Shown in pieces: positions 15,980-46,099 of a DNA stretch of 64,000 bases. The position numbers were made by a program, and so were the translations under genes. A model generated the notes under the pieces. The model was not told where the DNA came from. It did no database searches and saw only the letters and a program-made list of their open reading frames with translations. Within the stretch, counting starts at the first letter, position 1. Each line of letters begins with the position of its first letter. The DNA is from Gemmatimonadota bacterium (GTDB taxonomy: Bacteria; Gemmatimonadota; Gemmatimonadetes; Palauibacterales; Palauibacteraceae). Location: positions 1,056,001 to 1,120,000 of the forward strand of contig OZ220691.1 in the NCBI GenBank assembly GCA_965116475.1, given 5' to 3'.

Positions 15980-17173
15980 ATGGAGGAAGCGATGGATTCC
16001 CAGCACACGTTCTCACGCCGGCACTTCGTGGGCGGCGCCGCCGCGGCCCTGGGCGTTGCGGGCCTGAACCCGTCGGCGGTCATCGGCGCCGGGCTCAAGC
16101 CTCCTCCGAAGGGCGTCGAGCCGCTCGACCCCTACGACGATCTCGCCAAGCTCTCCTCCAACGAGAACCCGTACGGGCCCTCGAAGAAGATGCTGGAGGC
16201 GATGAAAGGGGCCTGGAAGTACTCGAACCGGTACGGCTATCCGGATGGCGACATCCTCGAGAAGATCGCGGCGTCGCACGGGGTCCCCACCGATCACGTG
16301 ATGATCAACGCGGGCTCCGGCGAGACGCTGCGCGTGGCGGGCCTCGCCTTCCTGCGCCATGAGGAGAAGGTCGTCGGCGTGTCGCCCACGTACCTGACCG
16401 TCTACCGGACCGCCTCCGGGATCGACGCGGACGTGATCGAGCGCCCGCTCCTGCCCGACTACACGCAGGACATCGACGACCTCATCGAGGTCACGAACCG
16501 CAACTATCGCGATGTGGGCATGGTCTACATCTGCAATCCCAACAACCCCACGGGCGTCATCGTCCCATCGGACGACATCCGCCGCCTGCTGGATGGGATT
16601 CCGGAAGACGTCCCCGTGCTCATCGACGAGGCGTACCACCACTTCATCGAGGACCCGCGCTACGAGACGGCCCTCCCCTACATCAAGGAAGGCCGCAAGG
16701 TGCTCGTGACGCGCACCTTCTCGAAGATCTACGGGCTGGCGGGCATGCGCCTCGGCTACGGGATCGCTCCGCCCGAGATGATCGACCAGATGCGGGACTA
16801 CGCGACGGGGAGCGTGAATGCGCTCGTGAAGTGGGGCGGCGTCGCCGCGCTCGAGGACAAGGAGTACGAGGCCTGGATCAAGGAGACCTCGAACACGCTC
16901 CGTGACCAGACCGCCGACATCCTCAGGGGCCAGGGCTTCGACGTCCTCCCGTCGGAGACGAACTTCTTCATGGTCCGCACGGGCCGCCCGTCGTCCGAGG
17001 TCAGGGCCGAGTTCCGCAAGCACGACGTAGCCGTGGGCCGGGACTTCCCGCCCATGCTCGACTGGCTGCGCGTCTCCGTGGGGACGGAAGATGAGATGAA
17101 GCGCTTCATGACGGCGTGGAACGAGATCTTCCCCGACGGCATGACGGCCGCCGACAGCAACAGCCGCTCGTAG
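15980..17173 (+). CDS. HisC-like class I/II PLP aminotransferase with Tat signal
   Basis: SRRHF; LSSNENPYGP, NRY..P, CNPNNPTG, DEAY, RTFSKIYGLAGMRLGY. Confidence 0.9.
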   Translation: MEEAMDSQHTFSRRHFVGGAAAALGVAGLNPSAVIGAGLKPPPKGVEPLDPYDDLAKLSSNENPYGPSKKMLEAMKGAWKYSNRYGYPDGDILEKIAASHGVPTDHVMINAGSGETLRVAGLAFLRHEEKVVGVSPTYLTVYRTASGIDADVIERPLLPDYTQDIDDLIEVTNRNYRDVGMVYICNPNNPTGVIVPSDDIRRLLDGIPEDVPVLIDEAYHHFIEDPRYETALPYIKEGRKVLVTRTFSKIYGLAGMRLGYGIAPPEMIDQMRDYATGSVNALVKWGGVAALEDKEYEAWIKETSNTLRDQTADILRGQGFDVLPSETNFFMVRTGRPSSEVRAEFRKHDVAVGRDFPPMLDWLRVSVGTEDEMKRFMTAWNEIFPDGMTAADSNSRS

Positions 17174-17192
17174 GGCGCCCGGCGCACTTCAC

Positions 17193-17996
17193 ATGCCAGG
17201 AACACGCCGGGGACTTCATGGGTCGCGCAGGCGCGGCATGGCGATGTGGCTCTCGCTTGCGGGCCTGATCCTGCATCTGGCCGTCGCGGCGCCGGCGCGG
17301 GCCCAGGTGGACCCGGACGCCATCATCGACCGGGTGGACCGGATGCTGCGGGGTGATTCCAGTCGGGGCGTCGCGACGATGGAGGTCGTGACCGAGCACT
17401 GGGAGCGGCGGATGACGATGGAGATCTGGTCGCTCGGCACGGATTATTCGCTCGTCCGCCTGCGGGAGCCGCGGAGGGAAGCCGGAACGGCGACCCTGAA
17501 GGCAGCCGAGGACATCTGGAACTACCTCCCCAAGGTCGACCGGACGATCAAGGTTCCCGCCTCGATGATGGGCGGATCGTGGATGGGGTCGCACTTCACG
17601 AACGACGACCTGGTCAAGGACAGCAGGCTCGTCGAGGACTACGACATCGAACTCGTGTTCGACGGACAGGATGCGGACGGCGTGGCGGTCTGGGACTTTC
17701 GCCTGACCCCGAAGCCGGAGGTGCCCGTCGTCTGGGGGCACATCGAGTACCGGATCCGGCAGTCCGATGACATGCCGATCCGGGCGGAGTTCTTCGACGA
17801 GGACGGCGAGCTGGCCAGGACCGTCGAGCACGGCGACTACACCGAGTTCAGCGGGCGGATCGTTCCCCGGGTCATGAACATGCACCCGGCGGACAAGCCG
17901 GACGAACGCACGACGATCCGCTACGAGGAACTGGAGTTCGACATCGACATCGAGCCGTCCTTCTTCTCACTCCGGACCCTGCAGCGCGGGAGGTAG
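17193..17996 (+). CDS. Outer-membrane lipoprotein-sorting (LolA-like) protein
   Basis: E.GT.TLK, W.YLP...R, SWMGS.FT.DD, FF..R.L; start may be ~17238. Confidence 0.8.
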   Translation: MPGTRRGLHGSRRRGMAMWLSLAGLILHLAVAAPARAQVDPDAIIDRVDRMLRGDSSRGVATMEVVTEHWERRMTMEIWSLGTDYSLVRLREPRREAGTATLKAAEDIWNYLPKVDRTIKVPASMMGGSWMGSHFTNDDLVKDSRLVEDYDIELVFDGQDADGVAVWDFRLTPKPEVPVVWGHIEYRIRQSDDMPIRAEFFDEDGELARTVEHGDYTEFSGRIVPRVMNMHPADKPDERTTIRYEELEFDIDIEPSFFSLRTLQRGR

Positions 17997-18002
17997 CGGC
18001 GC

Positions 18003-19259
18003 GTGACGGGCCGATTGTGGCGAATCGGATGGCGCAACCTCGGCCGCAACCGGAAGCGAACAGTTCTTACCGCGCTCGGCCTCGGGGTCGGCTATTTCGC
18101 CGTGGTGTTCATGGTCGGATGGGCCGAGGGCGTCTCGACGGAACTCGTCGAGAACGCCACGTCGCTCGTCAGTGGACAGATCGAGATCCACGATGCCGAC
18201 TACCGGCCCGAGCGCAGCCTGTACGAGACCATCGGCGGCCGCGAGGGGGCCGACGTGGGGGAGATCCTGCGCACCATCGAGGCCGATCCCTCGGTCGTGG
18301 CCGTCGCCCCGCGCGTGTACGCGAGCGGGCTCGTGAGTTCCGGCGAAGCGACATCGGCCGGCGCTCTGCTCGGCGTCGACCCCGAGCGCGAGGTGGCGCT
18401 GAGCCGTTTTCTGGATCCCCTCGTAGAGGGCCGCCTGCCTGCCACCGGCCGATACGAAGCGGTGGTGGGAGATGAGATGGCGCGGCAGCTCGAGCTGAGC
18501 GTCGGAGACGAACTCGTCGTCGTCGCCTCGGCGGCGGACGGCTCGATGGGCAACGACCTGTACACGGTCACCGGCATCTTCCGGACCGGCCTGCTCGAGT
18601 TCGATGCCGGCACCATGGTCCTGCCGGTCGCGGACCTGCAGACGCTCGTGGCCCTCGATCCGGGTCGGGTCCACGAAATCGCGGTCAGCACCGACGACCC
18701 GTCGCAAGCCGACCTGACCGCGACCCGCCTCGGCGCCGCCCTTGGAGCCCCCGAACGGGCGATGTCGGTCGCGCCATGGACGGAACTCAATCCGGTGCTT
18801 GCCCAGTATGTCGCTCTCGCCGATGCGACGTACTGGATCTTCATCGTCCTCATTTACTCGGTCGCCAGCTTCGGCATCGCCAACACGACGCTGATGGCCA
18901 CCTTCGAACGCCGCCGCGAGTTCGCCGTCATGCTGGCGCTGGGTGCATCGCCGCGGTCCGTGGTGGGCACAGTGCTGTCCGAGGCGGTCGCGACCGGCGC
19001 CATGGGGCTGGGACTCGGGACCGCCGTCACGGTGCCGCTGCTGGTCTGGTTCTCGACGGCGCCGCCCGACCTCGGATGGCTCTACGGAAGTCTCACCGTG
19101 GAGGGCGTCCTGCTGACCCCCAGTCTCCGCGTGGGGACCAACGTGCCGGCATGGATCTGGGCGACGATCGGCCTGATCGTCACGGCACTCGTCTCCGCCC
19201 TCTACCCGGCACTCCGCGCGGCGCGGGTGCCGCCCGCCGACACTCTGTCGGGCCTGTAG
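18003..19259 (+). CDS. ABC transporter permease (FtsX/LolE-MacB type)
   Basis: WRNLGRN.KRT.LT, GVDP..E, ER.REF..M.ALG, YPA.RAAR. Confidence 0.88.
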   Translation: MTGRLWRIGWRNLGRNRKRTVLTALGLGVGYFAVVFMVGWAEGVSTELVENATSLVSGQIEIHDADYRPERSLYETIGGREGADVGEILRTIEADPSVVAVAPRVYASGLVSSGEATSAGALLGVDPEREVALSRFLDPLVEGRLPATGRYEAVVGDEMARQLELSVGDELVVVASAADGSMGNDLYTVTGIFRTGLLEFDAGTMVLPVADLQTLVALDPGRVHEIAVSTDDPSQADLTATRLGAALGAPERAMSVAPWTELNPVLAQYVALADATYWIFIVLIYSVASFGIANTTLMATFERRREFAVMLALGASPRSVVGTVLSEAVATGAMGLGLGTAVTVPLLVWFSTAPPDLGWLYGSLTVEGVLLTPSLRVGTNVPAWIWATIGLIVTALVSALYPALRAARVPPADTLSGL

Positions 19260-19261
19260 CC

Positions 19262-20539
19262 GTGCGTCTGCGCGTCCTGGTCCGGCTCGCCCTCAGGAAC
19301 CTGCGCCGTCATCTGCGGCGCACGGTGCTGACCGCTTCGGCGATGATCGTCGGCGGCGCCTTCCTGGTTTGGTCGATGACGGTCGACGACGGCAGCCACG
19401 AGCAGTGGGTCGATTCGGGTGTGCGCATGGGGAGCGGACACGTGACCGTCGAGCGGCCCGAGTACCGGCTGCGCCGTCAGATCGACAACCGCCTGACGAC
19501 GGACGTCAGCCGCGCCGCGGAGCAGGCGCTGGCCTCTCCGGAGATCGCGCCGCATGTCGTGGCCACGTCCGCCAAGCTCGGCATCAACGGGCTGGCGAGT
19601 TCGGCGGCCGGGGCGCGCCCGGCGCAGATCGTGGGGGTCGACCCCGTCGCCGAAGCGGGCTTCGGCATGATCGACGACGGAGTGGTCGAAGGGCGCTACC
19701 TCGAGCCCGATGATCGGCTGGCGGCCTATGTCGGCGCCGATCTGGCCCGCAGCCTGGGACTCGAGATCGGATCGCGCTTCGTCGTGCAGGCGCAGGGCGC
19801 CGATGGCGAGATTGCGGGGCAACTGCTCCGCGTGGTAGGGATCTTCCGCAGCCGCGTGCCCGCCATCGACCAGGCGACGATCCACATCACGCTCGCGACG
19901 GCCGGCGAGTGGCTCGGTTCCGGGAGCGACGTGACCCACGTCGCGGTCGTCCTGCAGAGCAGCGATCGGACCCGACGGGTCTCGGACCACCTGGCGGTGG
20001 CGCTGGCGGAGCCGGTGGAACGCGGCGAGGCACGCGTCGTGGGGTGGCGCGAGGCGAACCCTGTCCTGGCGGCGGGGATCGCGATCGACGAGTTCGGGAA
20101 TTACGTGATTCAGGGGTTCCTGTTCGTCATCATCGCGTTCGGGATCGTCAACACGGTGCTGATGTCGGTGATGCATCGCCAGCGCGAGTTCGGCGTGCTT
20201 CAGGCGCAGGGGCTGACGCCGGGCCAGACGGGCACCGTCGTGCTCATCGAGGGCCTCACGCTGTCCGCTGTCAGCGGGCTGGTCGGCGTCGTCCTGGGAC
20301 TCCTGGGCACGTGGTATTTCTTCGGCGACGGGCTCGACACGTCGGTCTTCATGCAGGACATCGACGAGTTGACATTCTCGGGGGCCGCCGTTGACCCTAT
20401 CATCGTCCCGATCTTCGGGGTACGACGCATCATCCAGATCGTCGGGTTCATCCTCGGCATTGGCATTGTCGCCTCGGTCTATCCGGCGCTGCGCGCTTCC
20501 CGGGTCGATGTTACCGAGGCGATGAAGTTCGATCGGTAG
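19262..20539 (+). CDS. ABC transporter permease (FtsX/LolE-MacB type)
   Basis: ALRNL.RH.RRT.LT, NTVLMSV..R.REFG, YPA.RASR; GTG at 19262. Confidence 0.88.
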   Translation: MRLRVLVRLALRNLRRHLRRTVLTASAMIVGGAFLVWSMTVDDGSHEQWVDSGVRMGSGHVTVERPEYRLRRQIDNRLTTDVSRAAEQALASPEIAPHVVATSAKLGINGLASSAAGARPAQIVGVDPVAEAGFGMIDDGVVEGRYLEPDDRLAAYVGADLARSLGLEIGSRFVVQAQGADGEIAGQLLRVVGIFRSRVPAIDQATIHITLATAGEWLGSGSDVTHVAVVLQSSDRTRRVSDHLAVALAEPVERGEARVVGWREANPVLAAGIAIDEFGNYVIQGFLFVIIAFGIVNTVLMSVMHRQREFGVLQAQGLTPGQTGTVVLIEGLTLSAVSGLVGVVLGLLGTWYFFGDGLDTSVFMQDIDELTFSGAAVDPIIVPIFGVRRIIQIVGFILGIGIVASVYPALRASRVDVTEAMKFDR

Positions 20540-20585
20540 CCGCTCTCGTGCCGACCCCTTGCCGCGCAAGGAGAATCGAGGTGTG

Positions 20586-21287
20586 ATGGCAGTGCGCGAC
20601 ACGGCAGCCGCCCGGACCGACGGCGTCTGGAAGGTCTTCCAGCAGGAAGCCGAATCTGTGCAGGCGGTCCGCGACGTCAGCCTGACCGTAGAACGTGGCG
20701 AGTTCACCGCGCTGGCGGGGCCGTCGGGGTCCGGCAAGACGACGCTGCTGAATCTGATCGGTGGTCTCACCCGCCCCACGCAGGGACGGGTCTGGGTCGC
20801 CGGGCGGGAGGTGAGCCGCATGTCGAACCAGGAGCTCGCGCGGCTCCGGCTCGAGGAGGTGGGCTTCGTCTTCCAGGCCTATAACCTGCTCCCCGTGCTC
20901 TCCGCGCTGGAGAATGCGGAATTCCCGATGCTGCTCCAGGGCGTGCCCGCGGAGGAGCGTCAGGCGCGGGTCCGCGAACTCTTTGCGCGGACGGGAATGG
21001 AAGGGCTCGAAGACCGGCGCCCGGGCAAGCTGTCCGGCGGCCAGCAGCAGCGCGTCGCCGTCGTGCGCGCGGTGGCCAGCCGTCCGGCCCTGGTGCTCGC
21101 GGACGAGCCGACGGCGAACCTCGACTCGGTCACGAGCGAAGCGCTCCTCGATGTCATGGGCGAGTTGAATCGCGACCTCGGGGTGACCTTCGTCTTCGCC
21201 ACCCATGACGGCCGCGTCATGGAGCGGTCTCGGCGCCTGGTCCGCATGGTCGACGGCACCGTGCGTGACGACGAACGCCGATCCTAG
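20586..21287 (+). CDS. ABC transporter ATP-binding protein (LolD-like)
   Basis: GPSGSGKT, GFVFQ.YNL, LSGGQQQR, ADEPTANLD, THD. Confidence 0.93.
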   Translation: MAVRDTAAARTDGVWKVFQQEAESVQAVRDVSLTVERGEFTALAGPSGSGKTTLLNLIGGLTRPTQGRVWVAGREVSRMSNQELARLRLEEVGFVFQAYNLLPVLSALENAEFPMLLQGVPAEERQARVRELFARTGMEGLEDRRPGKLSGGQQQRVAVVRAVASRPALVLADEPTANLDSVTSEALLDVMGELNRDLGVTFVFATHDGRVMERSRRLVRMVDGTVRDDERRS

Positions 21288-21360
21288 AACCTGTCCCGGT
21301 CGCCTGTACGGCGTGCCACCCGCCTGGACACCGCACCGGTCATCGCCTGAGGCGCGAGCA

Positions 21361-22476
21361 ATGGACATCCACGAAGCGATAGCGATCAGCCAGGAGCGAT
21401 TGGCGGGGGAAGGCGCCACCATGCATGACCTGCTCGGGCCCCTGCGAGACAGAATCGCTCCCGTACTGATCGGGGAGCAGGAGTGGGAACACGTGCTGGC
21501 GCGGGCGGGAACCCTGCCGATCACCATGGGTGCCCAGCCGTTCGGTTTCGAGCTGCCGCTGCACGACCGTCGGCCGCGGGCGGATTTCGGCGTCTCGCTG
21601 GCGAGCGGCAACCGGTCGGGGGCGTTTTTCGAAGAGAAGGCGCGACGCGATCCATCGGATCGCACGGCGGCGGCGGTCCGTCGCCTGTTTCGCAGCATGG
21701 AGGCCGCGGACTCGCCCCTCCGCGCCATTGTCGGCCGCAAGCTGATGCTGGAATACGACATCGGGTCGGGGGGCGACGGCGATCCGCTGCCGGGGATGTT
21801 CCTGCGGCCCAACGAACGCACGATCGCCGGCGGCGCCGGGCAGCAGCACGATGTCGGCGTCGTGGTCGACGGACTCGTGGCCTGTCACGACCTGGAACCG
21901 AGCGCGGCGGAGCGGAGCAACGCCGAGCGGGTGTATCTGGCGCAACCGGAAGATACCCGCCTCGACTCCTTCGGCCTGTTTCCGTCACGCGCACGCACGA
22001 TCCGCCTGGCGATCATGGGCTTTGCCGGGCAGCGGGATGTCTGTTCCTTTCTCGAGGAAATCGCCTGGCCCGGCAACATCGCGACCGTGGAGACGGTGCT
22101 TGCACGCTTCAGCGAGCGCGCGGACATCGTCAGGACCGGCGTGAACGTCGACGCGCAGGCGGATGGCATCGGTCCGGCGCTCGGCCTGACGCCCATAGTC
22201 AGGCAGAGATATGCGGCTGATTCCCGGGTCTGGATCGATGGTTTGACGGATTGGCAGCCGGTGCTGGAGGCCCTGCGCCACGAAGACCGTGTAGTGCCGG
22301 AGAAGGTCGCGGCGCTGGCCGGCTGGGTCTCGCAACCGACCCTTCTGTTTGGCAGAACCGGGCGGTTTGTACTGATGCGCGGAATTCACCATCTTAAGCT
22401 GGTCATCGCCGGAGACCGGGTTGAACAGATCAAGGCCTATGTCTACATGGTGCTTTCGGGTGCCCTCGCGCCCTGA
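21361..22476 (+). CDS. Hypothetical protein of the RiPP cluster (possible PT-barrel prenyltransferase fold)
   Basis: Clean 371-aa ORF directly upstream of the halogenase; FGFE, LEYD, WPG, C-terminal HLKL...KAY; fold call is speculative. Confidence 0.6.
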   Translation: MDIHEAIAISQERLAGEGATMHDLLGPLRDRIAPVLIGEQEWEHVLARAGTLPITMGAQPFGFELPLHDRRPRADFGVSLASGNRSGAFFEEKARRDPSDRTAAAVRRLFRSMEAADSPLRAIVGRKLMLEYDIGSGGDGDPLPGMFLRPNERTIAGGAGQQHDVGVVVDGLVACHDLEPSAAERSNAERVYLAQPEDTRLDSFGLFPSRARTIRLAIMGFAGQRDVCSFLEEIAWPGNIATVETVLARFSERADIVRTGVNVDAQADGIGPALGLTPIVRQRYAADSRVWIDGLTDWQPVLEALRHEDRVVPEKVAALAGWVSQPTLLFGRTGRFVLMRGIHHLKLVIAGDRVEQIKAYVYMVLSGALAP

Positions 22477-22512
22477 TGTCGGCCTCCCGGCGCGCCCGGG
22501 GAGGTCGCCACG

Positions 22513-23823
22513 GTGAAGGAACTCGGCAGCGGATCGTGCAGGAAGATTGCCGTCGTCGGACGCGGCACCGCGGGCGCGCTGGCCGCCGCCAGCGTATCGC
22601 GGTTGCAGCCGGAGCCCGAGCATGAGCTGCACCACATCTACGATTCACGCATTCCGATCATCGGCGTGGGCGAAGGAAGCTGGCCCGGCCTGGTCCGCGA
22701 GCTGCAGCACCTGCTGCAGTTGCCCCACGAGACGGTTCAGCAACGCCTGAACGGCACCCGCAAGTTCGGCAACCGCTTCGAGGGCTGGGGTCGACGCCGA
22801 CAGGACTTCACTCACTACTTCACGCCGCAACAGGTGGCCTACGCCTACCACCTGTCGGCGGACCTGATGGCGGAGCTGCTGTGCGCGAGTACGCAGGCCC
22901 GCCACATCGACGCGAAGGTGACCGCGATCCGGCGAGTGAACGGAGGCGCACAGGTAGAGTTCGAGGACCGTGAGTCCGAGCGCTACGACCTGGTCTTCGA
23001 TGCCCGCGGCTATCCACGGCAACTGGACCCGCAGAAGCACATCGACATTTCCTTCATCCCCACGAACTGCGCCGTCATTCGCCGCGCCCCCCCGGTCATC
23101 GAGGCGCCGCCGAACGCGCCGGTCCGGGAACCCACGTATACCCGTGCAGTGGCGCGTCCGCACGGATGGGTGTTCGTCATTCCGCTGACCGTGCACACAT
23201 CCTACGGCTATGTCTTCAACAAGGACGTGTCCGGGCTCGATGCGGTCGAGGCGGACTTCGACGAGCTGCTTGCGGAGGAGGGTGTGTCGGACTTCGAGCA
23301 GCGCGCCGTCATTCCGTTTCCGAATTTCGTCCACCGCCGGATCTATGACGGCGCCGTGGCCCGCGTCGGGAATGCCGCCGCCTTCATGGAGCCGCTCGAA
23401 GCGACCGCCATCAGGTTGGCGCAACTGCAGGTCGCGCTGATTCTGCGCATGCGGTTCCACCGGCCAGCCGAATATGTGCAGCGCGACGCGCCCGTCATCA
23501 ACCGCTTTCTGGTCACCGACGCGCTCCTGGCCGGCCTGTTCGTCGGTTGGCACTATTCCTGCGGTTCGAAGTACGACAGTGCGTTCTGGCGCAACGCCCG
23601 GGACCGCGTGTGGCCGAACCACCGCGACGCCGCCGATCCGCGGGCCGTGGACTGTTCCGCCTTGCGCAAATTCGACGAGATGATCGAACTGGTCGACGCG
23701 CAGGTCCCCGATCCGGCGGACTGGGAGCGGCAGTGCGCGTTCTTTCCCGTGAGCAGCTTCGCGCAGATAGCCCACGGCCTGGGCGTGCCATTGGAGTGGC
23801 AGCGCGACGCCCGGCCGACGTAG
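22513..23823 (+). CDS. Flavin-dependent tryptophan-halogenase-family enzyme (SrpI-like peptidyl halogenase)
   Basis: GRGTAG FAD motif, IIGVGEG, catalytic Lys region TRKFG, GWVFVIP (WxWxIP-like), FMEPLEAT. Confidence 0.88.
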   Translation: MKELGSGSCRKIAVVGRGTAGALAAASVSRLQPEPEHELHHIYDSRIPIIGVGEGSWPGLVRELQHLLQLPHETVQQRLNGTRKFGNRFEGWGRRRQDFTHYFTPQQVAYAYHLSADLMAELLCASTQARHIDAKVTAIRRVNGGAQVEFEDRESERYDLVFDARGYPRQLDPQKHIDISFIPTNCAVIRRAPPVIEAPPNAPVREPTYTRAVARPHGWVFVIPLTVHTSYGYVFNKDVSGLDAVEADFDELLAEEGVSDFEQRAVIPFPNFVHRRIYDGAVARVGNAAAFMEPLEATAIRLAQLQVALILRMRFHRPAEYVQRDAPVINRFLVTDALLAGLFVGWHYSCGSKYDSAFWRNARDRVWPNHRDAADPRAVDCSALRKFDEMIELVDAQVPDPADWERQCAFFPVSSFAQIAHGLGVPLEWQRDARPT

Positions 23824-25834: not shown

Positions 25835-25835
25835 T

Positions 25836-31017: not shown

Positions 31018-32334
31018 ATGAACGGACCCATGGACGCGGACGATCTCCTCGTATCAAGAGCTCTCGTATCAAGAGCTGATGAAGACGGCGACTTTCGCGA
31101 ACGTCTTCTCCGAAAACCCAGGGAGACCATCGAGACGGAATTCGGCGTGACGCTGGCCGAGGACCATGAGATTCACGTGCACGAAGAGACGTATACCGCG
31201 ACGCACGTGGTGCTCCCGCCGCGGAGCAAGCTCAGCGAGGCCGAACGAGAGGCGGCGAGGACCGGTGCGGCATCGCTCGAGTTTCTTCGAAGGACACTCC
31301 ACGACCCCGCACCACCGCTCCGCCCTCCCGCAGGGCAGGAAGAGGGGGGCCGATGCAGCGGGGCCTCCCCGGAGGCGCTGGCCGGCGCGGCGAGGGAAGG
31401 GATCCGCCGCGGGCTCGCCTTCCTGGAATCCACGATCGACGAGAATGGGGCTTGGCACTGCATCCGGTTCAACGTGGCCGACCCGGAGATCCCCAGGCAT
31501 TTCGAGAGGCCCCCCTTCGTGTCGGCTCTCTGCGTGCTTGCCCTTGAGAGCTCCGATGAGCCGCGGGCCAAGGCGATTTGCACCGCTACGAAGGCATATC
31601 TCATCGACACCATCGAATATCCCGGATTCTGGCGGTACTACCGCCACCTCCCGCCGGATCTCGATAGTACTGCACTCTGTTCGCTCGTCATCGGGACGCA
31701 CCCCTGGATCTTGCTTGGAAGGAACGTTCCGGGGATGCTGGCGAATCGCGACGAGGAAGGCCGCTTCATGACCTGGGTGCTGGCGGAAGACGAACCCGAC
31801 GTCGTGTCGCGCTTTCGCATCGAGGCCGACCCGGTCGTCAATGCGAATGTCCTCGCCTGCCTCGGCGACCATCCGGAAACGAGGGATGCCCAGCTCTGGC
31901 TGGAAGCCCTGGTAACCGAAGGCAACCTCGAGGGCTCGTCGAAGTGGTATCCCGACACGGTCACGATCTACCATGCGATCACACGCGCGATGGTCTGTGC
32001 GGAGCCCGTCCTCGATCGCCTGCGCCCGATACTCGCGGATCGTATCCTCGGCCTGCGTGACGAGAAGGGAGGATTCGGCAATGTCCTTCAGACCGCCCAG
32101 GCGGTGTCGGCGCTCTACAACATCGGAAGCCTCGAGCGCATCGACGCGAAGCGCGAGGTGGAGCGACTGATGAGCTCGCAGCGCGGGGACGGCAGCTGGC
32201 CGGAGCTGCTCGCGTTCGGCGACCAGTCGTTGAAATGGGGCGTGGTAGGGCAGATCGGGCATGGCTCCGAGGCCGTGACCTCCGCGTTCTGCATCGAGGC
32301 CCTGGAGCGGCTCGTCGAAGTGCTGGAGGCCTGA
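31018..32334 (+). CDS. NHLP leader-like domain fused to prenyltransferase/squalene-cyclase-repeat (class II terpene cyclase-like) domain
   Basis: N-term RA.ED..FR..LL..P...I..EFG......I.VHEE.....H.VLP; C-term QW-like motifs (LESTIDENGAW, SSQRGDGSW) and PPDLDST. Confidence 0.75.
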   Translation: MNGPMDADDLLVSRALVSRADEDGDFRERLLRKPRETIETEFGVTLAEDHEIHVHEETYTATHVVLPPRSKLSEAEREAARTGAASLEFLRRTLHDPAPPLRPPAGQEEGGRCSGASPEALAGAAREGIRRGLAFLESTIDENGAWHCIRFNVADPEIPRHFERPPFVSALCVLALESSDEPRAKAICTATKAYLIDTIEYPGFWRYYRHLPPDLDSTALCSLVIGTHPWILLGRNVPGMLANRDEEGRFMTWVLAEDEPDVVSRFRIEADPVVNANVLACLGDHPETRDAQLWLEALVTEGNLEGSSKWYPDTVTIYHAITRAMVCAEPVLDRLRPILADRILGLRDEKGGFGNVLQTAQAVSALYNIGSLERIDAKREVERLMSSQRGDGSWPELLAFGDQSLKWGVVGQIGHGSEAVTSAFCIEALERLVEVLEA

Positions 32335-32339
32335 GCCAG

Positions 32340-34655
32340 ATGACAGCGGAGGCGCACGCGCGCCCCCGGCACGGGATCCTGGCCCGAACGACTCGTGCGG
32401 ACCGGGGCCTTGTCGAGCTTCCGGCTCTCACCCCGCACCTCCGATTCCACGGTATCGGCGAGGCGCAGGTCCTTCTCGTCTCCGAGTCGTTCAATACGCT
32501 GCTGCACGGCAAGCTGCACCGCGATCTGCTGCCGCTGCTCGACGGTCGGCACCCCCGGGACGAGATCGTCGCGGCCCTCGAGGGCGCCCATGCGGCGACC
32601 GATGTCCTGGCGGCCATCGCCGCGTTCGCGGCCAGGGGCTATCTGATCTCCGCCGATCACGGCATGGACCGGGGCCAGGCGGCCTACTGGTCGTCGCTTG
32701 GCGCGTCGCCGCGCTGGGTCGAAGAGCGGCTGGCGCAGTCGCGCGTCACGGTCGAAGGTGACGACGGCGGGCTCGTCCGGCACCTGGAGGCGAACGGCGC
32801 CAGGGTGGGAACCGGCGAACCGAAGCTCACCGTAGTGGTCTGCGGCGACTATCTCGAAGCCGATCTCGCGGAGGTGAATCGGCGCCACCTCGAGGCGGGA
32901 GCGCCGTGGACGCCGGTGCGGCCGAGCGGCATGGAGCCGCTCTTCGGGCCCGTCTTTCGGGCGGACGGGCAGGGACCCTGCTGGGATTGCCTCGCGTACC
33001 GCCTGCGCAGCCACCGGGAAGTCCATGGTTTCCTGCGCAACGTCGCCGGCGAGGAAGCCGCCTTCAGGCCGTTCGCGGCTCAGCCCGCAGTGCTGGAAGC
33101 GATGTACGGGCTGATCGCCGCGGAGATCGTCAAATGGCTGGCGCTGGGTGAGGCGGCCCCGATTCACGACCAGGCGATCGCGATGAATGTCGGCACGTTC
33201 GCAAGCTCGCACCATCGGGTCGTGCGTCGGCCGCAATGCCTGGCCTGCGGCGACGAAGCCTTGCACCGGCCGGATCGACCGCCGGTTCCGGTGTCTCTGA
33301 AGGCGAGCCCCAAGGCCCATCGCAACAGCGGCGGCGCGCGTGCCGTGGCGCCGGGAGCCACCCTGGCGAAGTACAGGCACCTGGTGAGCCCGATCAGCGG
33401 TGTCGTGACGTGGCTGTCGCGCACCACGGATGAGGCCGACTCCTGGCTGCACGTCTACTGGGCCGGGAGCAATCTCGGCATGAGAGGCCGGAGCCTGAGT
33501 TCGCTCAGGCGCAGCCTGCGCAGCAAGAGCGCCGGCAAGGGCAGCACACGACAGCAGTCAAAGGTCAGCGCCCTCTGCGAGGCGGTCGAGCGCTATTCGG
33601 GCGCCCGTCATGGCGACGAGATCCGTATCCGCAAGCGGTTCAGCGAGTTCGAGAGAGAAGAGGCGATCCACCCCAACGAGGTGCAGTTGTTCAGCGAGAG
33701 CCAGCTCGACGACGCGGGGAGCATCAACGCGAAAGGCCACCCCTACAACGTCGTACCGCCGCGTCTCGAGCCCGACGCCGAAATCGACTGGACGCCGGTG
33801 TGGTCGCTGACGCGGCAGCGGCACCGCTACCTGCCGACATCCATCCTCTACAGCATGCCGGCCGAGGAGCGCGGCCCCGCCGACCTGATCGCCGATTCGA
33901 ACGGCTGCGCCGCGGGCAACACCCTGGAAGAGGCCATCCTGCAGGGCTTCTACGAACTGGCCGAGCGCGATGCGTTCGCCATCTGGTGGTACAACCGGTT
34001 GCGGGTGCCGGCAGTCGATCTTTCCAGCTTCGACGACGACTACGTCACCGCGGCCCCGGACTACTACGCCCGTCACGAGCGGGAGCTATGGATGCTCGAC
34101 GTCACCTCCGATATCGGCATCCCCACCTTCGTCGCGCTCTCGCGCCGGCCGGACGCTCGGACCGAGGACATCATCTACGGTGCCGGGACTCACGCCGACC
34201 CGCGCATAGCAGCCCTGCGCGCGCTTTGCGAATTGAACCAGTGCCTTACCTGGCTGCCGCGTCCCGGGGCGGGGGACGGCCGGCCCATGATCGATGATCC
34301 GCTGGCCCTCTGGTGGTGGAAGACCGCCCGGCTCGCCGACTGTCCCTGGCTGGCGCCGGCGCCGGACGAACCGCCCCGCAAGGCCTCGCACTACCCGGTG
34401 ACCGAATCGGCGGACACGCGCGAAGATGTGGAGCATTGCCGCGCGCTCGTCGAGGCCGGCGGCATGGAGTTCCTGGTGCTGGATCAGACGCGGCCCGATA
34501 TCGGCATGCCCGTGGCGCGGGTCATCGTGCCGGGCATGCGCCACTTCTGGGCAAGGCTCGCGCCAGGGCGGCTGTACGACGTACCCGTCAGTATGGGCTA
34601 CCGCGAATCCCCGCTCGCCGAAGCCGACCTGAACCCCGCGCCCGTGATCGCGTAA
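32340..34655 (+). CDS. TOMM cyclodehydratase, fused RRE/E1-like + YcaO (SrpC-like)
   Basis: GP.F....PCW.CL, CLACG, SAGKG, EAVERYS, DSNGCAAG..LEEA..QG.YE..ERD, PGMRHFW.R, C-terminal PAP. Confidence 0.93.
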   Translation: MTAEAHARPRHGILARTTRADRGLVELPALTPHLRFHGIGEAQVLLVSESFNTLLHGKLHRDLLPLLDGRHPRDEIVAALEGAHAATDVLAAIAAFAARGYLISADHGMDRGQAAYWSSLGASPRWVEERLAQSRVTVEGDDGGLVRHLEANGARVGTGEPKLTVVVCGDYLEADLAEVNRRHLEAGAPWTPVRPSGMEPLFGPVFRADGQGPCWDCLAYRLRSHREVHGFLRNVAGEEAAFRPFAAQPAVLEAMYGLIAAEIVKWLALGEAAPIHDQAIAMNVGTFASSHHRVVRRPQCLACGDEALHRPDRPPVPVSLKASPKAHRNSGGARAVAPGATLAKYRHLVSPISGVVTWLSRTTDEADSWLHVYWAGSNLGMRGRSLSSLRRSLRSKSAGKGSTRQQSKVSALCEAVERYSGARHGDEIRIRKRFSEFEREEAIHPNEVQLFSESQLDDAGSINAKGHPYNVVPPRLEPDAEIDWTPVWSLTRQRHRYLPTSILYSMPAEERGPADLIADSNGCAAGNTLEEAILQGFYELAERDAFAIWWYNRLRVPAVDLSSFDDDYVTAAPDYYARHERELWMLDVTSDIGIPTFVALSRRPDARTEDIIYGAGTHADPRIAALRALCELNQCLTWLPRPGAGDGRPMIDDPLALWWWKTARLADCPWLAPAPDEPPRKASHYPVTESADTREDVEHCRALVEAGGMEFLVLDQTRPDIGMPVARVIVPGMRHFWARLAPGRLYDVPVSMGYRESPLAEADLNPAPVIA

Positions 34656-34749: not shown

Positions 34750-35007
34750 CTACCAGCAGCAGCAGAGCCCGGCCGAGATGGCTTCCATCTGCTCCTCGCT
34801 GATGTGCGGATCCGGCGGCAACGCGAGATGCACCGTCTGCATGTCGCTCTCATGGATCTGGATGTTCATCGAATCGGGAATCGTAATGCCCAACTCGCCG
34901 CTGATCGCAGTCTTCGGATCTGCGAGAAGCTGCTGCCTGAACCCCTCGTCCACGGTGGACTTCTCAACAATCTGCGCGAGCATTTCATCGCCGCTTCGCA
35001 TGGCCAT
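34750..35007 (-). CDS. NHLP/proteusin RiPP precursor, core LCCCW (SrpE-like)
   Basis: Nitrile-hydratase-like leader (D..FRQQLLADPK.AI..ELG..IP..M.I.IHE......LALP), ISEEQMEAISAG cleavage box, then LCCCW*; RBS spacing favours ATG at 35001. Confidence 0.93.
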   Translation of the reverse strand: MAMRSGDEMLAQIVEKSTVDEGFRQQLLADPKTAISGELGITIPDSMNIQIHESDMQTVHLALPPDPHISEEQMEAISAGLCCCW

Positions 35008-35124: not shown

Positions 35125-37212
35125 CTACTGCCGGGCGGCGGGGCGGTGCCGCTCATCCGCGAGCGCGACGATGTCCACGCCGGCCCGGGACCCGGTATCG
35201 ACTTCGCCGGCGTCGGCTTCGCGCTTGCCGGCCAGCGGCGCCTCGCGGGCCGCACTCGGCGCCGGAGCGTCTCGCAACGCCTGCGCGAGCCGTTGCTCGA
35301 TCTCGCCGTCGCCCGACACGAACACGCAGCGCGCCCCCGCAAGCGCATCAAGCTCGCGACTCCCACCGCGATTCGGCGGCTGTTCCCCGAACGCGGCGAG
35401 AGGATGGAGGCCGTCCAGCCCGCCGCGCGGGACGGGCGCCAGCAGCAGGTTGTTGCGCGACAGCGCTCGGAGCGCCTTGCGGAAGCGGCGGCACAGCGCT
35501 TCGTAGTACCTGGCCGGGCCACCGTCGTACACGAACCGGACATCGAGCTCCGCGCCCGGCAGCGCCTCCCCGTCTCCCAGCGGTCCCAGAACCGCGACCG
35601 CCACGCCACCGCTGGCCTGCGGAACGCCGCGATCGGCGAAGTCCTCCTCGACCGCGGACAGGACGAAGACGATGGAGGCTTCGGCAACGCGCGACAGCGC
35701 CGTCGTCGCTTCGCTCACGGACAGGCTGCCGCGCATCGCGTGCACGGCGATCTGGAAGACCTTGCCGTTCGACCACTCCAGCGCCGCCTCGACCGCCTCG
35801 CCGGCGTCCTGCACGGGAATGTCGTCGAGCTGGGCCCCCATCTCGGAGAGGCTGAGTTCGTGCGTCCAGTACAGACGCGCCAGCCCGCACCGGGCGATCG
35901 CCTCCGATTCCGAATCCGACAGGAATCCCTCCGGCAGCTCCAGGTCCGTGAACTCCCGCTCCCGCAGCGTGTCGAGCAGGACCGGCGAGCGGTTGATCCA
36001 CTCGGCGAGGCCGGGGGCGGCGGCATGAATCTCCGCGATGACGTCGAACGCGTCTGGACGCGCCGCGAACGCACGGCTGTCGTAGGCGCTCCAGTCGTCG
36101 ATCTCGGGATAGAACTGGGCGCGCTGACGATCGAGCAGCGGATCGATGGTCTCGAACCACCGCTTCGGAAAGAGCGCCATGCCGTTCATCTGGGCGTAGC
36201 TGCCCGGCAGCTGCGGGGAGGCGGCCTCGCCATGATGCTGCAACAGCGGATAACGATGGTTGGACGTATGGTGGTCGGCGTGGCGCTGCATGTTGTAGTA
36301 CAGCCAGTTGGTGAACTTGTAGGCCGCGCTCCAGGCGTGCCTCGGCTTGACCGGCTCGTACCTGCCGGTGGGCATGCGGATGCGCCGCAGTCCGTAGTGC
36401 TGCACGTAGTTGCTGATCTTCATCGAGAAGACCACGCTGCCGCACAGGGCAAGGTAGAGCAGCAGAGCCCATGGGCCGCCCCACCAGAAGATCAGCCCGT
36501 ACCAGAAGACGATCTGCACGGCGTAGCGCCAGAACGCGTTCGTGTAGTGCCACAGCGGCAGGTGGCGACGCGTCAGCCGGCGGCGTTCGAACCGCCAGGC
36601 CCCGACCAGGTTGTTCGCCACCTCGGCGGGCAGGTACTGCCAGAAGCTCAGGCCCTTCGGCGCGGACCCGGGGTCGAGCGGCGTACACACGCGGGGGTGA
36701 TGGATGTAGACGTGCTCGGTCGCATAGTGCGGGTAGGAGACGGAGGCCAGCAGGAACTCGCCGAGCCGGCGTTCCCAGAGCGCGCGCCGATGCACCAGTT
36801 CGTGGCCCACGATGAACACCGTCTGCGCGACCAGGGTCAGGATGGCGGCCGTGACACCGATCTCCCAGAGGGAAAGGCGGCCGACGAACAGCATCTGCCA
36901 GAGCGCGAACACGAAAGCCACCGGCCAGAACGCCGCCCACAACCAGAGCGAGAGCTTGTACAGGAACAACTGGCTCTCGCGGGTCGTCGCGGGATCCATG
37001 TTCCGCTCCTCGAGGCCGAAGAGGTGGTCGAACCGGTCCGCGAGCATGAAGAAGACGAACGGCCCCGCAAGCCACCAGCCGCCAAACACGGCGGCGCAGA
37101 CGACGAGCGGGAAGATGAGAAGGGGGACGAAATGCGGGAGCGCGTTCGCGACGGAGGGCTCGACGACCCGCCTGCCCGCCGTCATCGAGGCGCCGGAGCT
37201 ATGTGCTTCCAT
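35125..37212 (-). CDS. AlkB/fatty-acid-desaturase-family di-iron membrane hydroxylase fused to degenerate GlnE-like nucleotidyltransferase domain
   Basis: His boxes HELVH, EHVYIHH, NYVQHYGL, QRHADHH; C-term VAVLGPLGDGE.LPGAELDVRFVYD resembles GlnE GKLGG.E....SD.D. Confidence 0.8.
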   Translation of the reverse strand: MEAHSSGASMTAGRRVVEPSVANALPHFVPLLIFPLVVCAAVFGGWWLAGPFVFFMLADRFDHLFGLEERNMDPATTRESQLFLYKLSLWLWAAFWPVAFVFALWQMLFVGRLSLWEIGVTAAILTLVAQTVFIVGHELVHRRALWERRLGEFLLASVSYPHYATEHVYIHHPRVCTPLDPGSAPKGLSFWQYLPAEVANNLVGAWRFERRRLTRRHLPLWHYTNAFWRYAVQIVFWYGLIFWWGGPWALLLYLALCGSVVFSMKISNYVQHYGLRRIRMPTGRYEPVKPRHAWSAAYKFTNWLYYNMQRHADHHTSNHRYPLLQHHGEAASPQLPGSYAQMNGMALFPKRWFETIDPLLDRQRAQFYPEIDDWSAYDSRAFAARPDAFDVIAEIHAAAPGLAEWINRSPVLLDTLREREFTDLELPEGFLSDSESEAIARCGLARLYWTHELSLSEMGAQLDDIPVQDAGEAVEAALEWSNGKVFQIAVHAMRGSLSVSEATTALSRVAEASIVFVLSAVEEDFADRGVPQASGGVAVAVLGPLGDGEALPGAELDVRFVYDGGPARYYEALCRRFRKALRALSRNNLLLAPVPRGGLDGLHPLAAFGEQPPNRGGSRELDALAGARCVFVSGDGEIEQRLAQALRDAPAPSAAREAPLAGKREADAGEVDTGSRAGVDIVALADERHRPAARQ

Positions 37213-37320: not shown

Positions 37321-39789
37321 TCACGGGACGAGGACGGGCTGGCGTTTTCTGAGCAGGAACAACCCCTCGTTCCAGCTCGACACGGCGATCACGCCGCTCT
37401 CGAAGTACGGGTAGTTGCTCCACGTGCCGCCGAAGGCCGTCGCGTCGTCGTCCGTCGGCACCGTGTCGAAGAAGGCCACCTCCACCGGGTTCTCCGGATC
37501 GCGGATGTCGAGGATGCGGAGCCCGCCCAGCAGGTTGGACTGGTAGAGGAAGTCGCCGCGCACGTACTGGTTGTGGTCGATCGCGCGCGTCTCGGCGAAG
37601 TACTCCGTCGCGAGCACCGGATCGTCGAGTTCCGCCACGTCCCACACGAGGGTGCGCGTGTTCGAGACGGTGCCGCCTTCCTCGTCGAGTTCGTCGCCGA
37701 GGAAGAAGTAGCGGTGGTCCTCCGTGAGCCATCCCTGGTGGGCGGCGACGGCGCCCGGGTAGTTGGCGCTCGCGAGCGCGACGGGGTTCTCCTTGTCGGT
37801 GATGTCGGAGATCCCGAGCGCGTCGATCGAGGCGTGGAAGCAGATCTCCCGTCCGACGTAGTCCTCGTCGGGTCCGTCGTAGATCACGCACTGGGCGTCG
37901 TGCGTGTAGCCGCCGCCGAGAAAGCCGCCGATGTCGGGGTCCGCGAAGCAGCCGGCGAAGCGGGGGTTCCGGGGATCGCGGATGTCGATCATGTGGAGGC
38001 CGCCGCCGCACGCCTCGCCCCCGCCGCTGCTGCCGACGGCATGCGCGAACCCGGTCTCCTCGTTGATCACGATGTTGTGAGAACTGAACACGCCGTCGTA
38101 GTGGGCCGTCTCCTCGAACAGCGCCGGCGGGTCGCGCACGTCGCGCAACTGGGTGAGGTCGAAGATCTGGACGCCGTGCGCCCCGGCGTTGTCCGCCACG
38201 ATGAAGGCGTGGTCCGCGTAGGTCTTGATGTCGCGCCACAGGTTCTCGACGCCCCCTTCGGTGAGGGGAAGTTCGCCCACGTAGACCGGCGCGTTGGGGT
38301 CGGTGATGTCGACGAACGACGTGCCGTTGGATTTGCCGAGAAGGACGTACTCGCGACCGGTCTCGGAGTCGGTCCAGCCCCAGATGTCGTTCGCGATCGA
38401 TGTGGGGCCGGCGCCGAGTTCGGCGAGCGGGAGGAAGGCCACGAGATCCACGTCGGTGCAGGCGTAGTCGAGCGCGGCCCCGTCCTGGCAACTCACCGTC
38501 TCGCCCGAAACGGCGGTCATGTTCGGCCGCTCCGGATCGCGCAGCGTGCCCGACAACTCCCAGGGAGCGGCGAGGGAGGCGCGTTCGAACACGGCCGCGG
38601 CGCCCAGTCGGAGGTCGGCCTGCCCCGCCCCGATCACGGCAAGATGGCCGGACGCGCCGAGGCTCGAGCCGAAAGCCCCGCCCGGCCCGAACGGCGACTC
38701 GTCAAGCGTCTGAACGTGTTGGAAGGATGCGGCATCGAAGGTGTAGACGGCACCGGCGGCCGACGCGGTCGCGGGCGCGCCGATCCACACGGTTCCGTCC
38801 GCGATCGTGAGGGCGGCTCCGAAGCCGGCGGCATCCGATCCTGTCGGAGGCGTCAGGGTTCGGGAGGGGGTCGAGGCACCCTCCGGATCGAACACCGCCA
38901 CCGCGCCCGCGCCCTCCCGGCCGGGCGCGCCGGCAAACAGCGTCGTGCCATCGAACGCGAGCGCCGAGCCCAGCCGATCGCCGGGGACGCCGCCTTCGAG
39001 CATGAAGGATTCGACGTGCCGCCATTCGCCGCCGGAGGGCTCGTAGAGATGTACGGCGCCGCGATTGCCGTCCGCGCCCGGGGTGCCCACGAAGAGTCGA
39101 TTCTCGGCCGCGGCCAAGGCGGTGCCGAAGCGGTCGGAGCCTTCGGGTTCGGGAGCGGTCAGACGGCCCAGGAACGGTCCCCCATCGTCCCGTGTCACCA
39201 GGTAGATCCCAACGGAGCCGGGCTGCGGAGGCGCCGGTTGCCCGAACCGGGGCAGGTCGCCGAGTCCGCCCGGAGCGCCCACGAACGCGACATCGCCAAC
39301 CAGTGCGACGGCGCTCCCGAGACCGGCACGCGGCGCCCCGTCGGTGGAGACCATCGCGCGCTGGATCCAGGTGTCGCCGCTGCCTTCGCTCCGTTCGAAG
39401 ACGTAGGCTACGCCGTTCGCCTCGTTCGTTCCGGGGGCCCCCATCACCACCCGGTCGCCCGAGCCGGCGATGCTGGCTCCGAACTGGTCTCCCACTTCTC
39501 CCGTGTCCATCAGCGGCTGAAGGACTTCGGCGATGGTCCACTCTCCCGACTCGTCCCGACGGAAGACGTAGACCGCGCCCGGCTGGGGATACGTGGCGAG
39601 CCGGAGTTCGGCGCCCGTGCGCGACACCAAGATGTCGTCCCCGACGAGCGTGACCGCGGCCGCGAAGCCGGAGGCCGGAAGGGCGGGCCTCTCTGCCGTT
39701 GGAGCGAGCGTCTGAGCCGCGGCCGCGTCGGGCACGGCGAGGAAGCCGGGGACGAGGAGTGGGATCCATCGGATCAATCGGTGTCGCAT
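37321..39789 (-). CDS. Choice-of-anchor B family protein with N-terminal FG-GAP repeats
   Basis: Repeated FG.....G.P....GAVY units; NDIWGWTD, WRDIKTY, YTHDAQC, HQGWLTED, DELDE, IDHNQY, WSNYPYF.SG. Confidence 0.88.
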   Translation of the reverse strand: MRHRLIRWIPLLVPGFLAVPDAAAAQTLAPTAERPALPASGFAAAVTLVGDDILVSRTGAELRLATYPQPGAVYVFRRDESGEWTIAEVLQPLMDTGEVGDQFGASIAGSGDRVVMGAPGTNEANGVAYVFERSEGSGDTWIQRAMVSTDGAPRAGLGSAVALVGDVAFVGAPGGLGDLPRFGQPAPPQPGSVGIYLVTRDDGGPFLGRLTAPEPEGSDRFGTALAAAENRLFVGTPGADGNRGAVHLYEPSGGEWRHVESFMLEGGVPGDRLGSALAFDGTTLFAGAPGREGAGAVAVFDPEGASTPSRTLTPPTGSDAAGFGAALTIADGTVWIGAPATASAAGAVYTFDAASFQHVQTLDESPFGPGGAFGSSLGASGHLAVIGAGQADLRLGAAAVFERASLAAPWELSGTLRDPERPNMTAVSGETVSCQDGAALDYACTDVDLVAFLPLAELGAGPTSIANDIWGWTDSETGREYVLLGKSNGTSFVDITDPNAPVYVGELPLTEGGVENLWRDIKTYADHAFIVADNAGAHGVQIFDLTQLRDVRDPPALFEETAHYDGVFSSHNIVINEETGFAHAVGSSGGGEACGGGLHMIDIRDPRNPRFAGCFADPDIGGFLGGGYTHDAQCVIYDGPDEDYVGREICFHASIDALGISDITDKENPVALASANYPGAVAAHQGWLTEDHRYFFLGDELDEEGGTVSNTRTLVWDVAELDDPVLATEYFAETRAIDHNQYVRGDFLYQSNLLGGLRILDIRDPENPVEVAFFDTVPTDDDATAFGGTWSNYPYFESGVIAVSSWNEGLFLLRKRQPVLVP

Positions 39790-39808
39790 GTGACCTCCTT
39801 GTAACCGC

Positions 39809-41119: not shown

Positions 41120-41141
41120 GCGTCGCCTCCGGCTGCGCGGC

Positions 41142-45915: not shown

Positions 45916-46099
45916 GCCCGAACGAGCAGCGGAAGGGGCACTCTGGTCACGGGCCTATCGTTTCGGTCCACCGCTTGAATCCGTGGCCACACCACGACTA
46001 GTTTCTGACGAACCGGCACCATCGGAGCCGCGCGCGTCAACCGACGCTTGATCGGTGGGCTCTAGCGATCCAAGAGGGAGAACTCAAGGAGGTAGCGCG

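Follow-up and report, generated by a model that had tools for sequence, protein, structure and literature searches.

The window, by which we mean the whole stretch of DNA analyzed here, comprises 64,000 nucleotides of a Gemmatimonadota bacterium of the family Palauibacteraceae (assembly GCA_965116475.1, contig OZ220691.1, positions 1,056,001 to 1,120,000). Its minus strand carries an open reading frame of 695 amino acids (35125..37212). Residues 1-365 (36118..37212) form a membrane di-iron oxygenase domain of AlkB type, and residues 366-695, together with the stop codon (35125..36117), a single nucleotidyltransferase-like domain of GlnE type whose catalytic motifs are degraded. The gene belongs to a cluster for a peptide made on the ribosome and modified after translation (RiPP) of the srp type, srp standing for sponge-derived RiPP proteusin. 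From the distribution of the fusion over many genomes, we find that the srp pathway has this membrane di-iron oxygenase as a constant component. What it does there can be proposed from its own features and from those of its neighbors.

The N-terminal half is an AlkB-type integral-membrane di-iron enzyme with its nine-histidine metal site intact. In Pfam, residues 115-318 match PF00487 (FA_desaturase) with E 2.5e-21. A single-sequence search of the PDB finds the solved AlkB structures 8f6t_A (E 7.3e-50 over residues 43-363, 32 % identity) and 8sbb_A (E 7.2e-37), and a family profile of 39 sequences improves these values to 6.1e-83 and 4e-67. The AlphaFold model of the fusion, made from the 39-sequence alignment, has a predicted local distance difference test score (pLDDT) of 84.2 and a predicted template-modeling score (pTM) of 0.82. 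Its residues 17-380 superpose on 8f6t with VIA Z 36.7 and a root mean square deviation of 2.8 (353 residues aligned), and Foldseek relates the model to solved AlkB with E 1.2e-15. Nine histidines (H137, H141, H167, H171, H172, H272, H311, H314 and H315) are invariant across the alignment; the accessible text on the Fontimonas thermophila enzyme FtAlkB gives the same nine, at the same numbers 137-315, as its di-iron ligands (PMC10113152).

One position close to this site differs. The fusion reads NYVQHYG and FtAlkB reads NYIEHYG, so that Gln271 stands at the position of FtAlkB Glu271. Glutamine is found here in 36 of the 39 aligned family sequences and in 125 of 130 fusion-type proteins, the other five fusion representatives retaining glutamate. 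Among 75 stand-alone AlkB-like representatives, the position is Glu in 63, Gln in 11 and Gly in one. Glutamate at this site is described as setting AlkB apart from the desaturase SCD1, where a water takes its place, and from Scs7p, where the residue is a histidine (PMC10110569, accessible part).

The C-terminal half is more diverged. PF03710 (GlnE) matches residues 467-631 with 33.4 bits (curated cut-off 24), and the NCBIfam GlnE equivalogs match the fusion partially, the best at 31.8 bits against a cut-off of 724. A single-sequence PDB search with the fusion protein did not find GlnE, and the family profile was needed: this finds both domains of Escherichia coli GlnE, the one for adenylylation (3k7d_A, E 2.9e-26) and the one for deadenylylation (1v4a_A, E 1.8e-12). 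Residues 372-693 of the model superpose on 1v4a with VIA Z 18.1 and on 3k7d with Z 18.0. Since Pfam, PDB profile matches and model superpositions agree, we consider the two-domain architecture real.

In the alignment to 3k7d, LGPLGDGE...AELDV of the fusion stands opposite GKLGGWE...SDLDL of GlnE. The window protein has thus lost the lysine (G-P-L-G), carries Glu for the first aspartate and retains the second. GlnE EVDARLRP aligns to APV----P, which means that the third carboxylate motif (D-x-RLRP) is gone. None of the 39 sequences has lysine at the lysine position. At the first acidic position 23 carry E, 3 carry D and 13 another residue; at the second, 30 carry D and 7 carry E. An acidic pair is present in 25 of the 39 sequences, yet in only 6 of 15 diverse representatives. 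The fold is thus kept while most, though not all, of the canonical catalytic set is lost, and the domain is probably inactive as a nucleotidyltransferase. There is one such domain in the fusion versus two in tandem in GlnE (~950 amino acids). Further, the window protein and its closest relatives (678-697 amino acids) are without the last helical subdomain, most relatives having ~800 amino acids; the loss took the form of in-frame deletions of differing lengths with the extreme C-terminus retained. The last ~45 residues form a poorly conserved tail.

A reading of the window made from the sequence alone had already named most of these features. The AlkB histidine boxes with NYVQHYG for NYxEHYG, the fusion to a GlnE-type C-terminal part and the altered or missing Lys, first Asp and D.RLRP motif are all there, the change of the first Asp being conservative in the window and non-acidic only in the 13 sequences mentioned. 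Its view that the nucleotidyltransferase is probably inactive was a fair one, given the absent lysine and the replaced D-x-RLRP, although the retained acidic pairs must be kept in mind.

That reading had also considered that the fusion might be a one-off rearrangement, and this is not so. In a word-indexed search, both Pfam domains occur in 115 of the 120 best homologue clusters (query included), whose named sources are Candidatus Palauibacter (Gemmatimonadota) and metagenome-assembled genomes (MAGs) of Gemmatimonadota and Acidobacteriota. In an exhaustive search of 50 %-identity representatives, full-length fusions make up at least 15 clusters, the most distant at 29-32 % identity. Compared with 8 orthologues, the ratio of nonsynonymous to synonymous substitution rates (dN/dS) is lowest in the AlkB part (0.07-0.20), lies at 0.19-0.41 in residues 366-650 and rises to 0.74-1.24 in residues 651-695; these ratios indicate purifying selection on both domains and an unconstrained C-terminal tail.

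Two individual loci deserve mention. In an Alphaproteobacteria MAG (locus L031, 10001-16579), an insert of ~4.5 kb, with genes for a transposase of rve/Mu type and a TniB-like AAA protein, splits the fusion orthologue after residue ~543; the remaining GlnE-like part lies at 16178-16579. In genome G014, a single contig (C3) holds two fusion copies with identical scores at ~190 kb and ~1.93 Mb (L018, L019), and near the second lies a fragment of YcaO that contains an in-frame TAG. Either a duplication or an artefact of assembly could explain the double copy.

Clusters of the srp type were reportedly described by Nguyen et al., J Am Chem Soc 2021. As far as the accessible parts of the later texts tell, the srp precursor has an LCCCW core whose three cysteines are turned into thiazolines by the YcaO enzyme SrpC, its C-terminal Trp is brominated by the leader-dependent halogenase SrpI, and the clusters occur in many phyla of sponge symbionts and are highly transcribed (10.1101/2023.06.09.544420, PMC10858898, PMC10286304). 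One of these texts ranks them with the peptide clusters that are most widespread and most transcribed in sponge microbiomes, with final product and role unknown (10.1101/2023.06.09.544420), and a later genome-mining text calls conserved genes of these clusters "of unknown function" in the part accessible (PMC11832590).

The window has all the hallmarks: an LCCCW precursor with an NHLP leader, a YcaO protein and a Trp halogenase. The SrpE-type precursor (34750..35007, minus strand) is an 85-residue protein that ends in GLCCCW and matches TIGR03793 with 67.6 bits (cut-off 50.9). The stop codon of the fusion (35125) lies 117 bp before its ATG (35007) on the same strand, as the sequence-only reading had put it (~120 bp), and a promoter and terminator scan between the two genes gave nothing above shuffled expectation. 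On the plus strand follow a fused leader-binding and YcaO cyclodehydratase of SrpC type (32235..34655; PF02624 E 3.6e-97, TIGR03604 and TIGR03882 above their cut-offs), a protein joining an NHLP-leader-like N-terminus to a ~340-residue terpene-cyclase or prenyltransferase-repeat-like domain (31018..32334; TIGR03793 and SQHop_cyclase_C, both below cut-off), two exporters recognized by Pfam, namely a C39-peptidase ABC exporter (25629-28046) and a second ABC exporter (28046-30982), a flavin-dependent Trp halogenase of SrpI type (22477..23823; PF04820 E 5.6e-46) and a 371-residue protein with an ABBA aromatic-prenyltransferase fold in its AF2 model and Foldseek matches (21355..22470). At the cluster edge, also on the plus strand, are a LolA-like gene (17145-17996; PF17131 E 9.1e-48), a LolCE-like permease gene (17997-19259) and a LolD-like ATPase gene (20526-21287), the latter two with NCBIfam matches below cut-off (TIGR02212/TIGR02211). 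By their position, these Lol-like genes (17145..21287) are a possible export module of the cluster.

By gene family and content, then, the window cluster is a copy of the published srp proteusin cluster, and its YcaO and halogenase are the likely equivalents of SrpC and SrpI. The idea that the cluster was new has therefore to be given up; it is a published one, and the fusion is among its conserved genes. The fusion architecture and the role of the gene appear to be undescribed in the literature reached, which did not cover the founding srp paper: a full-text search, with that paper outside it, found no paper that connects AlkB with GlnE, or an alkane hydroxylase or desaturase with proteusins or SrpI. 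The ABBA-like and NHLP-cyclase-like genes are likewise without description in the accessible literature.

The window stretch occurs in sequencing runs labeled sponge metagenome, and the fusion loci come from sponge-associated bacteria of several phyla. In one sponge metatranscriptome run, contigs cover 28 of 30 window bins with 88-99 % likeness; because these contigs come from relatives and DNA carry-over is possible, they do not demonstrate expression of the fusion gene.

The link between fusion and peptide cluster was followed in both directions. Firstly, a fusion-anchored scan with one genome per species gave 80 loci, 16 with both domains (L022-L037) and 64 with the AlkB part only, and homologues of the window YcaO, NHLP precursor, NHLP-fusion protein or C39/ABC pair were counted within 10 kb. 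Such cluster genes lie near 14 of the 16 fusions, with YcaO at 12. These 16 loci come from Gemmatimonadota, Vicinamibacterales/Acidobacteria, Alpha- and Gammaproteobacteria and Nitrospirales MAGs, and their usual one-strand order is C39-ABC, ABC, NHLP-fusion, AlkB-GlnE and YcaO, with the precursor nearby. In most of the other phyla the fusion stands between NHLP-fusion and YcaO or directly before YcaO, on the same strand, and the C39/ABC exporter pair is conserved beside it. Homologues of the YcaO, precursor, NHLP-fusion, ABBA-like protein and halogenase were found at none of the 64 stand-alone AlkB-like loci, three of which have generic ABC matches.

Secondly, a YcaO-anchored metagenome scan gave another 80 loci, 10 of them with a YcaO 59-81 % identical to that of the window and 70 with one of 37-48 %. 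The fusion is present at 8 of the 10 srp-type loci versus none of the 70 others. The two srp-type loci without it are L103, where YcaO lies at the contig end, and L102, which has a xanthine-dehydrogenase-like gene upstream. Thirdly, 41 whole genomes were compared, namely that of the window, 24 others from the same genus and 16 from a sister family, which are kin and not independent samples. The 10 genomes with the fusion are exactly the 10 with a YcaO at least 65 % identical; the fusion is absent from the 3 genomes with distant YcaOs only and from the other 28. In two of these genomes (G003, G017) the distance from the fusion to an LCCCG precursor, an ABBA-like gene and YcaO is ~10-14 kb, with an RND pump and an ABC pair in between.

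Orthologues of the precursor with xCCCx cores occur at 13 other loci. Beside the fusion the cores read LCCCW, LCCCG, LCCCGI, MCCCGI and RCCC, the constant part being CCC and not Trp or Leu; halogenase homologues are found at fusion loci L029, L032, L035 and L036. Linkage to such precursors in other genomes, which had been suggested as a check on the first reading, thus exists in several phyla. Taken together, the fusion gene has been inherited and transferred with YcaO, the xCCCx precursor, the C39/ABC exporters and the ABBA-like protein.

Upstream of the fusion, on the same strand, lie genes for an FG-GAP / choice-of-anchor-B protein (822 amino acids), an acyltransferase-3 and a pyrroloquinoline quinone (PQQ) dehydrogenase (37321-43229). 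This block is conserved only within Palauibacter. We considered it as the true context of the fusion, the RiPP genes being chance neighbors, and rejected this, as distant loci keep the srp genes without the block.

The genus also holds a second cluster type (L014/L182 in G003, L017/L183 in G017, and L022), with core LCCCG, a YcaO 65-68 % identical, an ABC pair ~55 % identical and an RND pump between fusion and exporters; no halogenase or NHLP-cyclase fusion was found in the stretches read. In four close relatives (G006, G011, G016, G020), whole-genome search shows one in-frame TGA in the open frame around the YcaO match, probably upstream of the true start. Elsewhere in the window, whose G+C is 0.65-0.72 over most of its length, positions 46000-52000 drop to 0.57-0.58. 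They encode a DNA-methylase/HhH-GPD fusion, proteins of 753 and 202 amino acids without Pfam match and a 632-residue protein with pieces of sigma-70 region 4 and of the RNA polymerase alpha C-terminal domain, and may be a foreign island.

Several neighbors point to isoprenoid or lipid chemistry. The 371-residue protein has no Pfam or NCBIfam match. Its AF2 model (pLDDT 88.8, pTM 0.88) gives 91 PDB matches at E <= 0.001 in Foldseek, and the matches listed are all ABBA prenyltransferases (TMq 0.37-0.56): NphB/Orf2, FamD1, IptA, 6-DMATS, AmbP1/3, PriB, CloQ, EpzP, TleC and the peptide prenyltransferase PagF. The predicted structure is thus that of an ABBA barrel. The gene occurs at all 10 srp-type YcaO loci, at none of the 70 other YcaO loci and at 8 of the 16 fusion-anchored loci. 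In the 438-residue NHLP-fusion protein, the leader-like N-terminus scores 45.7 bits with TIGR03793 and the C-terminal domain 23.4 bits with SQHop_cyclase_C. A profile relates the protein to the squalene-hopene/tetraprenyl-curcumene cyclase 8paj with E 0.003, and its neighbors in a language-model atlas carry SQHop_cyclase_C (scores 0.89-0.94). We take a terpene-cyclase-like C-terminal domain as a lead from these matches. The NHLP-cyclase fusion is conserved in L025, L031-L035 and the LCCCW-type Palauibacter clusters and was not found in the LCCCG/RCCC-type loci.

Other genes are found at some loci: UbiA, an amine-oxidase-family flavoprotein (this Pfam family also includes CrtI-type desaturases), an MpaB/Lcp-type oxygenase, a methyltransferase, MMPL, LolA-like and DUF1302 proteins. 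At L017 a polyprenyl synthetase adjoins the fusion. General scans of the 89 neighbor proteins of six loci and of the window cluster showed no McbC- or nitroreductase-type azoline dehydrogenase.

An oxygenase of this kind needs electrons. The rubredoxin domain PF00301 was not found in the single-contig genome of the window (96.3 % complete), and the same search was positive in 7 of 14 control genomes. The motif counts for rubredoxin from a crude scan, 0 among the 16 fusion loci and 4 among the 64 stand-alone ones, are too imprecise to build on. The genome holds one Reductase_C ferredoxin-reductase-type flavoprotein gene ~1 Mb away, and a similar gene lies at the edge of two clusters (L029, L036). 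Another ferredoxin could serve as the donor.

We tentatively propose that the fusion oxidizes an isoprenoid or alkyl chain, either on the srp peptide or on the precursor of its modification, and that the GlnE-like domain acts as a non-catalytic dock; this reading is plausible to us, if still short of probable. In the accessible description, the substrates of AlkB are aliphatic chains that reach it from the bilayer by way of a hydrophobic tunnel; it oxidizes their terminal carbon, with electrons arriving at the cytoplasmic face (PMC10113152). The conserved prenyltransferase-like and terpene-cyclase-like neighbors make us lean to a lipid substrate rather than to replacement of an azoline dehydrogenase. 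The course of events might be as follows. YcaO would first convert the three cysteines to thiazolines. The ABBA-type enzyme would attach an isoprenoid to the peptide, or prepare one for it, and in many clusters the leader-tagged terpene-cyclase-like protein would also take part. Within the membrane, the AlkB domain would hydroxylate or desaturate the aliphatic chain, using O2 and electrons from a ferredoxin-type electron chain of the host. The GlnE-like domain, carrying out no nucleotide transfer, would form a platform on the cytoplasmic side, sitting where FtAlkB carries its rubredoxin, and would keep the leader-bearing substrate or a partner enzyme close to the membrane enzyme. The narrower version, in which srp peptides are membrane-processed lipopeptides that are prenylated by the ABBA enzyme, oxidized in the tail by AlkB-GlnE and docked through their NHLP leader by the dead GlnE domain, we regard as possible but doubtful.

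A number of observations weigh against such a chain-oxidizing enzyme with a silent dock. The accessible parts of the srp papers report thiazolines and bromo-Trp only, and no lipid (PMC10858898, PMC10286304). The exchange of Glu271 for Gln could equally mean desaturase-like chemistry on another substrate. One orthologue reads GADLDV at the nucleotidyltransferase motif, and the acidic pair kept in 25 of 39 sequences makes residual nucleotide binding or activity possible. At two of the 16 fusion loci no srp genes lie nearby: L028 is a contig of 9.5 kb, and L027, labeled Bifidobacteriaceae, adjoins sugar-nucleotide and Mla lipid-transport genes. The match to the ABBA fold is a moderate one, and the terpene-cyclase assignment draws on sub-threshold matches and language-model neighbors. 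Finally, the NHLP-cyclase fusion is missing from fusion loci L023, L024, L026, L029, L036 and L037, and so is not an obligate partner.

The same two loci without srp genes, L027 with its Mla neighbors in particular, speak for an enzyme that acts on a free lipid, either to produce a hydroxylated isoprenoid or alkyl donor or to remodel membrane lipid for export or self-protection, with the GlnE-like domain as a sensor. So do the lipid-transport genes that recur in the clusters (MMPL, LolA-like, DUF1302, RND) and the Palauibacter block that joins the fusion with acyltransferase-3 and PQQ dehydrogenase genes. These Palauibacter neighbors are, however, not found elsewhere, and the placing of the fusion between NHLP-fusion and YcaO or directly before YcaO in most other phyla also speaks against this option. 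We consider the free-lipid option unlikely.

Another option, already raised in the sequence-only reading, is that the AlkB domain works as a peptide desaturase that turns thiazolines into thiazoles in place of the FMN (flavin mononucleotide)-dependent azoline dehydrogenase. No gene for such a dehydrogenase was seen in the neighborhoods scanned, the fusion follows the invariant CCC and not the Trp, and "azol(in)e" products are mentioned in the literature (10.1101/2023.06.09.544420, accessible part). The prevalence of Gln271 in fusion-type proteins, set against Glu in most stand-alone relatives, also fits, as this glutamate is said to distinguish AlkB from SCD1 (PMC10110569); five fusion representatives nevertheless retain it. 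The substrate path described for FtAlkB (PMC10113152, accessible part), a narrow and hydrophobic tunnel with its mouth in the bilayer, suits an alkyl chain and not a peptide backbone on a leader of ~80 residues, and the conserved prenyltransferase-like partner would be left unexplained. We hold this option to be improbable. To our knowledge, no membrane di-iron enzyme oxidizes azolines, which we count against it as well.

The AlkB domain could also hydroxylate or desaturate a core side chain, such as that of the leading Leu/Met or the Trp indole. The tight linkage of the fusion to the precursor agrees with this, and the mature core, being short and very hydrophobic, could partition into the membrane. 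But the first core residue varies (L, M, R), many cores beside the fusion have no Trp, and the tunnel argument applies here as it does to thiazolines, so that we think it quite unlikely. That the protein is an ordinary alkane hydroxylase for hydrocarbon catabolism, with the RiPP cluster adjacent by chance, is hardly credible despite its 32 % identity and full-length fold match to FtAlkB, given the two-way co-occurrence with srp genes and none for stand-alone relatives, the search for rubredoxin that came back empty, the replaced Glu271 and the lack of an alcohol or aldehyde dehydrogenase operon conserved beside the fusion outside one genus.

If the lipopeptide version of our proposal is true, the fusion would be the first enzyme of the AlkB/desaturase family to act as a RiPP tailoring enzyme, and a GlnE domain would have been re-used as a leader dock in a cluster without a stand-alone RiPP recognition element protein. 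The constant oxygenase, its re-purposed GlnE domain and a partner with a prenyltransferase fold together give a concrete, testable proposal for the missing srp steps. They also offer a possible reason why soluble reconstitution in E. coli with YcaO and halogenase alone may not give the natural product. For AlkB enzymology, the family represents a natural E271Q, non-rubredoxin branch.

Among known systems, the published srp clusters are the closest to the window as a whole. They share the NHLP precursor with LCCCW, the YcaO that forms three thiazolines, the leader-dependent Trp brominase, two ABC transporters and the spread over several phyla, and their accessible descriptions hold no cluster-level difference from the window copy. 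The protein itself compares best with FtAlkB-AlkG, the AlkB-rubredoxin fusion of Fontimonas thermophila (PDB 8F6T; PMC10113152, accessible part). Both are six-helix membrane di-iron enzymes with the same nine histidine numbers, and both carry a soluble domain on the C-terminus, at the cytoplasmic side. The fused domain of FtAlkB-AlkG is a rubredoxin, whereas that of the srp fusion has a GlnE-type nucleotidyltransferase fold without redox center. FtAlkB further has Glu271 where the fusion has Gln271 and gate residue Ile54 where it has Phe54, and the fusion lies in a peptide cluster, unlike FtAlkB, and not in an alkane regulon.

E. coli GlnE (3K7D, 1V4A) is related to the C-terminal half by fold and by sequence homology of one nucleotidyltransferase domain with its flanking helices. 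GlnE has two such domains, the Lys in G-K-L-G, the first Asp and D-x-RLRP, in all of which it differs, and the window fusion is in addition without the terminal helical subdomain. SCD1 and Scs7p of the FADS-like superfamily also have a histidine-rich di-iron site, and like SCD1 the fusion is without the AlkB-specific carboxylate near the metals. Their overall fold match is weak (Z 5.2-5.8), however, and the sequence of the fusion clearly groups with AlkB.

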